NCBI GenBank assembly: GCA_965203445.1
Contig: OZ241883.1
Coordinates: 1-64,000 of the forward strand
Direction of reading: 5' to 3'
Length of the DNA stretch: 64,000 nt
Source of the DNA: Candidatus Oxydemutator sp.
GTDB taxonomy: Bacteria > Pseudomonadota > Gammaproteobacteria > Poriferisulfidales > Oxydemutatoraceae
Shown one piece after another: positions 25,001 through 27,557 of this stretch (position 1 is its first letter; each line of letters begins with the position of its first letter). The translations under genes were made by a program, and so were the position numbers. The notes below the pieces were generated by a model, which did not search any database, had not been told where the DNA came from, and saw nothing but the letters and a program-made list of their open reading frames with translations.

Positions 25001-25489
25001 TCGAACGAGGAAGTGGACCTGGACGCGCCGCTCGACACCGTGGCCGAGGTGCGCCTGGGCGAACCGGCGCTGATCCCCGACCACTACGTGCCCGACGTCG
25101 GCCTGCGCCTGGTGCTCTACCGGCGCATCGCCGCGGCCGCCGACCACGACCAGCTCGACGAGCTGAGGCTCGAGATGACCGACCGCTTCGGCGCGCCGCC
25201 CGAGCACGTCGCCAACCTGTTCACGAACGCGGCGTTGCGGCTGCGCTGCCGCGCCCTGGGCATAACCCGCGCCGAGGCCGACGACGCCGGCTTTCGCGTC
25301 CACTTCGCCGGGCAGACGAACTTCGACACCGCCGGGCTGCTCGCGCTGGTGCAGGAGCAACCGGCGCTGTATCGCTTCCACGGCCCGCGCAAGCTGATCA
25401 TCTCCGAGACGCGCGACACCGCGCGTGAACGCAAACGCTACCTCGAAGGCTTTTTTGGGGAATTACATACTTTAATCCGTGAAGGATAG
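22043..25489 (+). CDS. mfd: Transcription-repair coupling factor
   Basis: FPDWETLPYD, GDVGFGKTEVA, DEEHRFG, QLRGRVGRS, DLEIRGAG. The last 10 codons come from the inserted element. Confidence 0.96.
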   Translation: MPTDNPTIVRWGGLHGCAAARAVADLLQDERVAILLIAPDTAHAARFESELRFFLGDGRDVVSFPDWETLPYDHFSPHSDLSAARLATLARLPRLAAGVCITTCAAAMQRLTPASFIQARAFTLRCGDKLDIHDFRRRLNEDGYAATSQVSHHGDFSVRGGIVDFYPPSGAHPVRVELFDDEIASLRLFDAQTQMSAETVEEVAVLPAREFPMDAAAIAGFRRRFRVEFDATPGECPVYRDVSEHVVPGGIEHYLPLFFDDLSTLFDYLPSDALVVSTEALDEHAAAHWDYVAGRYRQLCETPQRPLAAPQRLYLTPDELGARTRDFRRVEIQPFRHRDKRGARLGDVVDFATRVPPPLALDLQQPDPAAKLRAFVADFDGRILIAAQSPGYRERLSELLADYGLRAHVVGDFSEFAEGTERLCLCVAALHEGAVFDDERLALITDEQILGPRAAARRRARRTPDANAVIENLGSLEPGCAIVHEEHGVGRFRGLEVIELAGYPSEFCVVEYAEGDKLYVPVASLHLLSRYVGGDPESAPLHKLGGGQWRKSRRKAAVKARDVAAELLDVQARRDARGGFAFEPFEADFRAFAAAFPYEETPDQSKAIGDILSDMRAPRPMDRVVCGDVGFGKTEVAMQATFVAACNSRQTMVLAPTTLLARQHYETFRERFAAWPVRIEMLSRFRSRAEIGASVAAIEKGAADVVIATHKLLHQNVRFKRPGLIIIDEEHRFGVKDKEKLKALRARCDVLTLTATPIPRTLSMSLSGLRDLSIIATPPPGRHAVKTFIKQWDDALIREACQRELRRGGQVYFLHNDVKTIEEMARRVRELMPQARVAVAHGQMPERLLENTMLDFYHRRRDLLVCSTIIESGIDVPSANTIVIHRADRLGLAQLHQLRGRVGRSHHSAYAYFLVPPKAQMTGGAMKRLEAIESLEDLGIGFTLAVQDLEIRGAGELLGEEQSGHLQEVGFTMYNRLLKRAVEALQSNEEVDLDAPLDTVAEVRLGEPALIPDHYVPDVGLRLVLYRRIAAAADHDQLDELRLEMTDRFGAPPEHVANLFTNAALRLRCRALGITRAEADDAGFRVHFAGQTNFDTAGLLALVQEQPALYRFHGPRKLIISETRDTARERKRYLEGFFGELHTLIREG

Positions 25490-26828
25490 TGAAGTAGCTG
25501 ATTTTATGTAAGATTTTGTTATAATGTTTGAGAATGAAGGTTCATAGAACAATTCGATACAGGCTGCATGCCAGCACGCATGCCAAAGCCCGCAAGTTGG
25601 CGGGTTTGGCGGGTGCGTGCAGGTTTGTGTGGAACCATTTTGTAGGAAAGTTACGGGATGAGTATATAGCATATGGAAGATGCAGGCCTTGGTATTTTAC
25701 ATTGGGCAAGCAGTTCACTCTGTTGCGACGTTATTGTGAACCCTGGTTGCAGGAATACTCGGCCAACATAGTAAAGAGTTCTTTGAAGCCCATAGAAACT
25801 GCGTACAAGAAGTTCTATGACAAGAAAGGAGGACTCCCTAGGTTTCATGCAAGATATGTACATCATGAGAGTTTCCCTTTGGTATCTGGTTTGTTTCGTA
25901 TAAGGGGTCGCCATTTGCATATAGCCAAGATAGGCGAGGTGCTGTTGCTTGGCCATAATCCGTATCCCGATGCAAAGCCCGTGTCGGGCACAGTCAAAAG
26001 GGAATGCGGGAATTGGTATGCATACATAGTGTATAAAGTGGAACAGAAAGAAGTTAAACGTGAATATAATTCAGTAGGCATAGACAGAAATGTAGGTCAA
26101 ATAACATGCTCGGATGGGATAGTTTATCGAATGCCTGATACTACTCGATTAGAGGCGCGTCGTCGTCGTTATCAGCGGATGATGGCGAGGCGGAAGTGCG
26201 GTAGCAGGAAGCACAAGGTAAAACCCTCTAATCGCTATCTGCGTGCCAAGCATTCCCATGCCATAACGTGCAGGAAGATAAAGCAAAAGAGGAACAACTG
26301 GTGTCATCATGTAAGCAGTGAGATAGCAGAGAATTATTCTGTAGTGCATTTGGAGGATTTGAATACGAGGGGCATGACGAGGGGTGCCAAGGGCACGGCT
26401 ACTGCCCCTGGCAGGAATGTGAAGGCCAAGTCGAGCCTGAACAAAGGAATACTACGTACGAACTGGTATAAATTAGAGCAGTATTTGGGTTACAAAACCC
26501 AAGTAAATTATGTATCTGCAAAGAACACGAGTCGTGCTTGCAACAAGTGCGGATGTATAAACGAGAAGAACAGAGTATCGCAATCAATGTTTGTTTGTGT
26601 TGATTGCGGCCATCGAGACAATGCGGACTGGAACGCCGCCAAGAATGGCAAAGTTCTGGGCGATGCTACACTGAATTACAAGGCCTCCGGGAATGGGGCT
26701 ACTGGACGCGGAGGTGGCGGTAAGACCTTGAAGGAATTATTAACCGACAAGGCACGGCCTGTGAAGCGTCAAATGGATACTTCAATCTCAGAGAATAATG
26801 TTCTCACGGATTAAAGTATATAATTCCC
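25458..26828 (+). mobile_element. Non-autonomous TIR-bounded element (IS1595-like ends) carrying only tnpB
   Basis: Left end gggaattacatactttaatccgtga (25458-25482) and right end tcacggattaaagtatataattccc (26804-26828) are 24/25 inverted. Direct repeat cttttttg at 25450-25457 and 26829-26836. Interior is AT-rich. Confidence 0.9.
25534..26814 (+). CDS. tnpB: TnpB RNA-guided endonuclease (IS200/IS605 OrfB family)
   Basis: AGACRFVWN; RuvC-I GIDRN; RuvC-II LEDLN; Zn ribbon TSRACNKC..CVDC; RuvC-III NADWNAAKN. Confidence 0.93.
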   Translation: MKVHRTIRYRLHASTHAKARKLAGLAGACRFVWNHFVGKLRDEYIAYGRCRPWYFTLGKQFTLLRRYCEPWLQEYSANIVKSSLKPIETAYKKFYDKKGGLPRFHARYVHHESFPLVSGLFRIRGRHLHIAKIGEVLLLGHNPYPDAKPVSGTVKRECGNWYAYIVYKVEQKEVKREYNSVGIDRNVGQITCSDGIVYRMPDTTRLEARRRRYQRMMARRKCGSRKHKVKPSNRYLRAKHSHAITCRKIKQKRNNWCHHVSSEIAENYSVVHLEDLNTRGMTRGAKGTATAPGRNVKAKSSLNKGILRTNWYKLEQYLGYKTQVNYVSAKNTSRACNKCGCINEKNRVSQSMFVCVDCGHRDNADWNAAKNGKVLGDATLNYKASGNGATGRGGGGKTLKELLTDKARPVKRQMDTSISENNVLTD

Positions 26829-26942
26829 CTTTTTTGATACCATTGCGCATTGATGTCCGTCGCCCACCCTCTCCTACGGGGGAGAGGGTTACATGATGGG
26901 CCCGCGAACAATATCTCCCTCTGGGTGAGGGAGAATGCAGCA

Positions 26943-27557
26943 ATGTACAGGAACCCGAAAAAAATGCTCGCCCGGTTGTTGGCGGCGGCGGTGCTGCCGG
27001 GCGCGCCGGGCGCGCACGCGCAGCAGGACGCCGAGCTGTACCAGATCGAAATGATCATCGTCAGGCACGTCGGCGCCGAGATCAAGCGGCTGCGCGACAT
27101 CGTCAACCCGGAACTGGCGCACCGGCTGAGGCAGCCGGCGCTCGCGCTGGCCGACGCGGCGCCGCCGGATCCGATCTTTCCGGTGACCGACGAGACGCAA
27201 TACCGGCTGGCCGAACGGGCCGAGAAGATACGCGCCGACGCCTCGCTCGAGATCGTGCGCCACCTCGCGTGGCGCCAGCCGCCGTACAACCGGGAACAGG
27301 CGCGCTACGTCCATTTCCTGAGCGAACCGTCGGCCGGGGTACTGAAGGGCGTGGCCTGGCTCAGCTACGAGAACTACTTTCAGCTGCGCCTGGATTTCCA
27401 GTACGACCCGGCGTACTCCGACGAACCGGCGGTGTCGTCGCAGCCGACGACGACGCTGATTCCGATACACTTGAAAAAAGTCCTGGCCGACGACGAACTG
27501 CACTATCTCGATCACCCCATCATCGGCGTGTTGGTCGTGATCACGCCGGTGCCATAG
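26943..27557 (+). CDS. CsiV-like periplasmic protein
   Basis: YQIEMII, HLAWRQP, ELHYLDHPIIGVLV; usual neighbour of mfd. Confidence 0.7.
   Translation: MYRNPKKMLARLLAAAVLPGAPGAHAQQDAELYQIEMIIVRHVGAEIKRLRDIVNPELAHRLRQPALALADAAPPDPIFPVTDETQYRLAERAEKIRADASLEIVRHLAWRQPPYNREQARYVHFLSEPSAGVLKGVAWLSYENYFQLRLDFQYDPAYSDEPAVSSQPTTTLIPIHLKKVLADDELHYLDHPIIGVLVVITPVP

Follow-up and report, generated by a model that had tools for sequence, protein, structure and literature searches.

An IS1595-type element carrying tnpB and a predicted omega-RNA scaffold that runs into its right inverted repeat

A tnpB element at the 3' end of the mfd gene of Candidatus Oxydemutator sp. has terminal inverted repeats of the IS1595 type, and its right repeat appears to double as the end of a conserved guide-RNA scaffold. 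The element lies in the window, that is, the stretch of 64,000 nucleotides that was analysed (contig OZ241883.1, positions 1 to 64,000). We consider it likely that this is an IS1595-type element without a transposase, that its TnpB works with a scaffold extending to position 26828 and a guide made of the target duplication and the flank, and that the nuclease cuts sites from which the element has been lost.

The tnpB-only element occupies positions 25458-26828 (1371 bp) and coincides with a low-GC island, about 45% against about 70% in the surroundings. It is bounded by 25-bp inverted ends, the left at 25458-25482 and its partner at 26804-26828 (both given on the + strand); the arms 25457-25482 and 26804-26829, of 26 nt, have 96% complementarity. 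The 8-bp target duplication CTTTTTTG stands at 25450-25457 (left copy, no strand) and again at 26829-26836. The genome is a single contig of 2.38 Mb with 63.6% GC. It contains a second copy (C1:1131112-1132482), identical over the full 1371 bp, starting at the same base and having unrelated flanks, and about a dozen diverged relatives of the element. The end of mfd is uninterrupted in three genomes of the same genus, where the octamer is single: ...GG TTTTTTTG ATACCAT (ATAACAT in one of the three). By these comparisons the element is a genuine insertion and is mobile. Contigs from two DNA runs of one sample span both junctions of the occupied site, and none of them links 25457 to 26837; the three joints listed in these runs have short sides or lie at another location and have no bearing on an empty allele.

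The sole long gene of the element is tnpB (25528-26814, + strand, 428 codons), starting with TTG at 25528 or ATG at 25534. Its product contains the Pfam domains Cas12f1-like_TNB, OrfB_IS605 and HTH_OrfB_IS605, and passes the NCBIfam model guided_TnpB (175.6 bits, cut-off 100). The protein can be aligned with the ISDra2 TnpB structure 8h1j (E = 1.2e-17); the motifs GID, LED and RDNAD contain the acidic residues, and neither of the two CxxC pairs is missing. Pfam, NCBIfam and this alignment all point to a TnpB with the RuvC D-E-D triad and a zinc ribbon. Of the 14 copies in this genome, 13 retain an open frame (406-439 codons), and the nuclease, as judged from its sequence, is apparently active. 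A simple scan for sigma-70-like promoters found no site on the + strand of the element.

The hallmarks of IS200/IS605 transposons are a Y1 HUH TnpA and the lack of both inverted repeats and target duplications. The present element does not belong to this family as a transposon: it has the 25-bp inverted repeats and the 8-bp duplication, there is no Y1 TnpA in the complete genome (0 matches to PF01797), and its TnpB fails the NCBIfam model IS200_TnpB (137 bits, cut-off 425). The IS607 family is characterized by a serine recombinase TnpA, ends in GG and an RNA of the RAGATH-18 type. Neither IS607 nor a RAGATH-18 reRNA agrees with the IS607_TnpB score (80.7 bits, cut-off 350) and with the Rfam scan of positions 25300-27100, in which the best E-value was 2.9 and no omega-RNA or RAGATH family was found.

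The ends are of the IS1595 type rather than the IS200/IS605 type, according to their similarity to elements that do carry a transposase. A 2616-bp element of the same genome (C1:1978350-1980965) has matching ends and an 8-bp duplication and encodes a DDE_Tnp_IS1595 transposase (PF12762, E = 1.3e-43) with a zinc ribbon, together with a methyltransferase-HNH passenger. This is the one IS1595 DDE transposase of the complete genome. Transposases of this family are also present in all five other genomes bearing the tnpB elements and, across the order, in 23 of 53 genomes, and related genomes contain transposase-only elements with ends starting with GGGAAYTAT and 8-bp duplications. The element considered here thus shares the inverted ends and the 8-bp duplication with IS1595 insertion sequences, and differs from them in having no DDE_Tnp_IS1595 transposase of its own. 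Since it carries tnpB only, and a transposase with matching ends is encoded elsewhere in the genome, it can be regarded as a non-autonomous IS1595 derivative. The tnpB elements are most likely non-autonomous cassettes moved in trans.

Related elements were collected as the best 80 of 123 loci. Their source genomes are metagenome-assembled, many bearing names of sponge symbionts, and among these best 80 the annotations include Porisulfidus, Poriferihabitans, Arenicellales, Caldilineaceae, Thermodesulfobacteriota, Rhodothermales, Bacteroidota, Dadabacteria and Spirochaetia. Eighty 3' tails were cut, 13 from copies of the same genome and 67 from the 80 related loci, the remaining 13 loci having failed the anchors. 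All 80 tails are built alike: block 1 is followed by a variable stem-loop, then come block 2 and a variable hairpin, and last the terminal ...TATATAATTCCC. Past the latter follows an AT-rich flank that is unrelated between elements. In the family of 81 elements, the left end was found in 66, and a duplication matching in at least 7 of 8 positions in 42.

The tail of the element may fold into four stems and a pseudoknot, all on the + strand. Stem 1 is formed by 26683-26687 and 26695-26699. Its loop GGGAAU (26689-26694) may pair with AUUCCC, the last six bases of the element (26823-26828), to form the pseudoknot. Stem 2 (GACGC at 26705-26709 with GCGTC at 26766-26770) encloses stem 3, which lies within about 26712-26760 and has a longer insert in this copy. 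Stem 4 is a long hairpin (26777-26819) with AUACUU and AAGUAU at its base and GAGAAU and GUUCUC at its tip. Two of these pairings had been pointed out in the initial annotation, GACGC with GCGTC and GAGAA(T) (26791-26796) with (G)TTCTC (26800-26805), along with the motif cctgtgaagcgtcaa, and all of them are indeed found in the sequence, the motif at 26757-26771. The tail of tnpB was said to overlie the pairing segments, and the frame 25528-26814 covers them all. The first of the two pairings is stem 2, which covaries, and the second is the tip of stem 4, a hairpin kept in the relatives.

The conservation of pairing was assessed in two alignments. In a plain MAFFT alignment of 78 unique tails, three named helices were scored, stem 1, stem 2 and the pseudoknot. 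The fraction of paired cells is 96.2%, compared to 86.6% in shuffled alignments, none of 500 shuffles being as high; the covariation score is 0.271 as opposed to 0.112 after shuffling, and shifting the partners by 1-3 columns leaves it no higher than 0.094. The GACGC/GCGTC pairing is GC in 52 of the 78 relatives and CG in the other 26, and is unpaired in none. RNAalifold run on this alignment predicts two of the three helices, stems 1 and 2, unaided. It misses stems 3 and 4, which are out of register in the plain alignment and are regained by folding of individual sequences and by a covariance model. Folds of stem 4 in single sequences have a mean z of -3.0 relative to shuffles, with z < -1.5 in 83% of the 78, and the sequences themselves differ. 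At the base of this stem, GAUAC of block 2 pairs with GUAUAU of the inverted repeat.

With 14 tails as its basis, the covariance model yields 81 matches in 93 sources, one for each listed source and always on the tnpB strand. The matches stop at the end of the element in all but one of 81, the exception being a truncated locus (L044). Within the 64-kb window the model has a single match, at 26677-26828 (85.8 bits, E = 1.2e-19). In the alignment fitted to the model, with the pseudoknot added, 94.0% of cells are paired, compared to 76.7% after shuffling, both sides change in 20 of 29 pairs, and the covariation score is 0.441 against 0.148; such an alignment is biased in favour of the structure and its sequences share ancestry, for which reason the shuffle counts here and above should not be read as probabilities. 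In this alignment stem 1 is paired in 98.5% of cells (its pair 3 is CG in 63 rows and GC in 17) and stem 2 in 98.7% (GC 53, CG 26). Changes on both sides are seen in 8 of 8 pairs of the two helices of stem 3, and in 5 of 5 pairs of the basal helix of stem 4, where 84.9% of cells are paired.

The pseudoknot is the weakest of the helices. It is paired in 92.4% of cells of the fitted alignment; its pair 5 is AU in 49 rows, CG in 7, GC in 4 and UG in 1, and is of another kind in 18 of the 80 rows, mostly U-U in one lineage. The loop hexamer of stem 1 is identical to the top strand of the left end. Among 37 elements whose two ends differ, the loop is nearer to the right end in 25, to the left end in 5 and to neither in 7; when the consensus bias is removed by taking only those elements whose right end departs from the consensus (16), the counts become 6, 5 and 5 and do not tell the two ends apart. 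The covariation and the folds described above support the last 146 bases or so (26683-26828) as encoding a conserved omega-RNA scaffold. They likewise support a double role for the right inverted repeat, which would act in DNA as a transposase end and in RNA as the 3' arm of stem 4 and the 3' strand of the pseudoknot. A search of public runs for this stretch gave no match among the runs recorded as RNA.

The same architecture is known from ISDra2. In the cryo-EM structure, as described by Nakagawa et al. (2023, PMC10097598), the ISDra2 omega-RNA has a 116-nt scaffold with stems 1-4 and a pseudoknot. The latter is formed between positions -5 to -3 and positions -103 to -105 of the stem-1 loop; a long-range stem 2 encloses stem 3, stem 4 comes just before the pseudoknot strand, and the guide follows this strand with one base between. 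On that description the present system is similar in having a TnpB with RuvC and zinc ribbon, a predicted RNA over the 3' end of the gene and the same order of helices, and a guide in the flank is predicted here; the scaffold is about 105-150 nt in the family compared to 116 nt in ISDra2. The proposal of the initial annotation that an omega-RNA overlaps the end of tnpB and runs into the right inverted repeat is thus borne out, as far as sequence can tell, by six covarying helices and by the match to the ISDra2 layout. With a structured RNA predicted over the gene end and a pseudoknot adjacent to the guide, the element conforms to the OMEGA type. On the other hand, it differs from ISDra2 in having no Y1 TnpA and no subterminal DNA hairpins, and in having inverted ends and an 8-bp duplication.

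The sequence immediately beyond the element is the most likely source of the guide. Each of the last two columns of the element carries 2.0 bits of information, compared to 0.6 at position +1 and about zero beyond +8. Because conservation falls at this point, we place the end of the scaffold at 26828 and the start of the variable part at the duplication. The predicted guide is 26829-26848 (+ strand), consisting of the right copy of the duplication (26829-26836) and the flank; this position follows from conservation, from the ends of the model matches and from comparison with ISDra2. Since the element has an 8-bp duplication, the first eight bases of the guide would be the duplicated target. 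Such a guide, starting after a scaffold end at 26828, had been one of two alternatives in the initial annotation, and it agrees with the pseudoknot strand being the last element of the scaffold and with conservation stopping there.

A motif immediately 5' of the duplication had been suggested there as something to look for across insertions, and one is present and asymmetric. It was counted in 41 unique insertions whose duplication is good. Position -1, just before the left copy, has G in 30 cases, A in 10 and T in 1, and never C, that is, a purine in 40 of 41; A stands at -3 in 25 of 41; C is found at the mirror position +1, next to the right copy, in 3 of 41. The bias at -1 depends on the orientation of tnpB (27 insertions against 0, binomial p = 1.5e-8). 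The control consisted of 22 transposase-only elements with ends of this kind, each oriented by its transposase gene. They have G at -1 in 6 of 22, compared to 30 of 41 (Fisher p = 0.001), and A at -3 in 7 of 22, compared to 25 of 41 (p = 0.036), in a control set that is small, with 8 of the 22 representing one IS in one genome, and whose transposase lineages differ from those of the tnpB set. In smaller control trials, clean ends were seen at 4 of 30 transposase loci of five genomes, and one IS with nine copies (genome G005) had two with intact duplications. The duplications are AT-rich in both the tnpB and the transposase-only sets.

In the window the motif reads AGG (25447-25449, + strand) and directly precedes the left duplication. 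We infer from the family motif that A-N-G is a candidate TAM. In the ISDra2 system, according to the published account, the TAM is TTGAT; the TAM of the present element, by contrast, cannot be the cleavage motif of the transposase. The motif A-N-G is short and degenerate compared to published TnpB TAMs. At the occupied site the CCC of the element stands where the motif would be.

The proposed mechanism is as follows. Transcription leaving the element through its right end would make a guide from the right copy of the duplication and the flank. The only full match to this guide beside a permissive motif would be the empty site, ...AGG, one CTTTTTTG, then ATACCATT..., whereas at the occupied site the matching sequence would come after the CCC end of the element. 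TnpB would then cut emptied sites, and recombination with a sister copy would most likely restore the element.

The initial annotation had also allowed for a different guide. If the scaffold ended at ttcaa, about 26781-26785, the next 20 or so internal bases would form a fixed guide common to every copy; indeed, the segment after GGAUAC varies between subfamilies, as a guide would. However, in nearly all relatives this segment folds into a hairpin (mean z = -3.0), its base pairs with GUAUAU of the inverted repeat with covariation in 5 of 5 basal pairs, it takes the place of stem 4 in the ISDra2 structure as described, and it is followed further downstream by the pseudoknot strand, with which the element terminates. 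We reject the internal guide, since 26781-26785 lies in the covarying stem 4 (26781-26822) and the pseudoknot strand is 40 bases further; it is extremely improbable. Somewhat less improbable, although still very unlikely, is that the conserved pairings work in DNA or in transcription, through transposase binding, an end hairpin, a terminator or control of tnpB translation, and that TnpB is an inert or repurposed passenger. A transposase has to bind the right inverted repeat anyway, and the identity of the loop hexamer with the left-end top strand means that a shared protein-binding motif could mimic covariation in the pseudoknot. Yet stems 1, 2 and 3 covary at 60-145 bases inside the element, in the coding region, and the left end has no equivalent structure; moreover, the layout equals the solved omega-RNA, as published, helix for helix, and the nuclease residues and the open frames of 13 of 14 copies are kept.

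A third alternative concerns the flank motif. Even with a real omega-RNA and a guide in the flank, A-N-G might reflect an orientation-dependent choice of target by the IS1595 transposase, or selection for being expressed from promoters outside the element, and TnpB might have a role other than restoring emptied sites. This is unlikely, but considerably more plausible than the two preceding possibilities. The control set is small and phylogenetically different, the motif has merely one to three informative bases, and the AT-rich duplications common to both sets indicate that the transposase shapes the target. Besides, excision by a DDE transposase leaves a double-strand break, which already invites recombinational repair (PMC13565253, section 6.2), and thus the gain from homing is less obvious than in the case of IS605. 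However, near-identical ends predict a symmetrical preference, whereas G at -1 and C at +1 occur in 30 and 3 of 41 insertions, respectively, and transposase-only elements with similar ends have G at -1 in only 6 of 22 cases. The absence of C at -1 (0 of 41), while CCC precedes the match at the occupied site, is the pattern expected of self-avoidance. We retain the guided cutting of emptied sites as the preferred explanation.

TnpB is known as a helper of transposons with scarless excision, such as IS605 and IS607. A link of prokaryotic TnpB with DDE cut-and-paste transposons is rare and has been called a puzzle (PMC13565253, section 6.2). That it exists is already established: the main text of Altae-Tran et al. 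(2023, PMC10691335) describes six DDE-associated branches of TnpB, DDE-1 to DDE-6, with inverted terminal repeats, and notes solo TnpBs whose ends are those of transposase-bearing elements, implying that they are mobilised in trans. As in these branches, the inverted repeats of the present element are symmetric and the 3' end of tnpB lies at most 250 bp from the end of the element. The family named for DDE-associated TnpB in that main text is IS630, and 'IS1595' does not occur in it; the review by Kojima (2026, PMC13565253) finds the rare DDE-TnpB link in ISL2, IS630 and IS1031. In the parts of these two papers dealing with DDE-1 to DDE-6, no omega-RNA structure, pairing of a pseudoknot with the element end or TAM is given. 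Titles and opening lines of abstracts on TnpB and IS1595 contained nothing on IS1595-ended tnpB elements with a guide RNA, and no omega-RNA of a prokaryotic DDE-linked TnpB was described in the records from 2023 onwards on TnpB, DDE and TAM. Compared to IS1595 insertion sequences (with ISXO2-like DDE transposases), the element has the same ends, GGGAAYTAT..., and AT-rich 8-bp duplications, but carries tnpB and a guide-RNA scaffold as cargo in place of a transposase gene. Fanzor elements of eukaryotes and giant viruses are similar in that a nuclease of the TnpB family resides in transposons with inverted repeats and duplications (PMC10530073, PMC13565253), and the guide RNA of Fanzors reaches into the right inverted repeat (Jiang et al. 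2023, PMC10530073). Unlike Fanzors, the element is prokaryotic and its RNA would end near the ORF. In Fanzors the 5' duplication is part of the TAM (PMC13565253), whereas here the variable 8-bp duplication would be part of the guide.

What is new is the structure backed by covariation, the twofold use of the inverted repeat, the predicted role of the duplication as first eight bases of the guide, and the asymmetric flank motif compared with a control. A wider reading is that a DDE cut-and-paste family, IS1595, has taken over RNA-guided restorative homing, with a right repeat in two roles, a duplication seeding every guide, an A-N-G TAM outside the duplication deciding persistence, and horizontal spread through sponge-symbiont bacteria of many lineages; on this we are evenly divided. 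In any case, the tnpB family is clean, multi-copy and apparently active, its predicted guide-RNA structure can be read from covariation, and its inverted repeat appears to be dual-coded. The orientation-specific flank motif, which is not seen as a bias in the transposase-only relatives, hints that the nuclease shapes the survival of insertions. The TnpB is compact (about 410-430 aa), with a defined scaffold of about 105-150 nt and a TAM that is possibly short and non-T-rich. The benefit of RNA-guided homing to DDE transposons thus becomes directly testable, and the same question applies to the eukaryotic Fanzors.

Through the insertion of the tnpB element, mfd loses its last five codons and ends instead in ten codons derived from the target duplication and the left end of the element (window 25450-25489). 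If the empty site is restored, the mfd frame would end in GFFDTIAH followed by the stop codon. Apart from these altered C-terminal codons, the Mfd protein encoded in the window is intact. In contigs of X1, a DNA run covering both junctions of the occupied site, the depth is about 48-59 inside the element (25458-26828) compared to about 30-32 in the flanks. This nearly twofold depth is consistent with two identical copies of the element in the genome.

The TnpB frame continues through the RNA scaffold, both in the window (26680-26811) and in all copies of the family. The last RuvC motif is followed by a conserved tail (..GNGA.GRGG....RPVKRQMDT..), whose conservation at the peptide level probably reflects constraint from the RNA rather than a function of the protein. 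By way of analogy, the C-terminal residues 379-408 of ISDra2 TnpB were left out of its cryo-EM model (PMC10097598).

Two orphan copies of block 2, the conserved scaffold segment preceding the variable hairpin, occur in the complete genome (G000:C1:481770-481795 and 1480642-1480667), both without an upstream tnpB. Downstream of the latter copy, a hairpin and a degenerate end motif are still present. Both look like decayed right ends. The 13-base end motif itself occurs 78 times in the whole genome with at most two mismatches. Many of these occurrences are solitary and adjoin GC-rich sequence. Some form short pairs, such as the 163-bp pair at 113341-113503. The motifs probably represent solo ends and miniature elements derived from the family.

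The same genome contains, outside the window, an IS1595-type element of 2.6 kb (G000:C1:1978350-1980965; locus L021, 501-3116). Its 26-bp inverted ends match perfectly, and its duplication reads ATCAGAAA. Beside the transposase, it carries a passenger gene for a 436-aa protein that joins an N6/N4 DNA methyltransferase to an HNH nuclease domain.

Close relatives of the tnpB cassette (L022-L101, the best 80 of 123 related loci) come from metagenome-assembled genomes whose annotations span many different lineages, and many of these genomes are named after sponge symbionts. At least 15 copies among these best 80 of 123 loci reside in one genome (the record of L056). The occurrence in so many differently annotated lineages suggests wide horizontal spread of the cassette family within the sponge-symbiont habitat.
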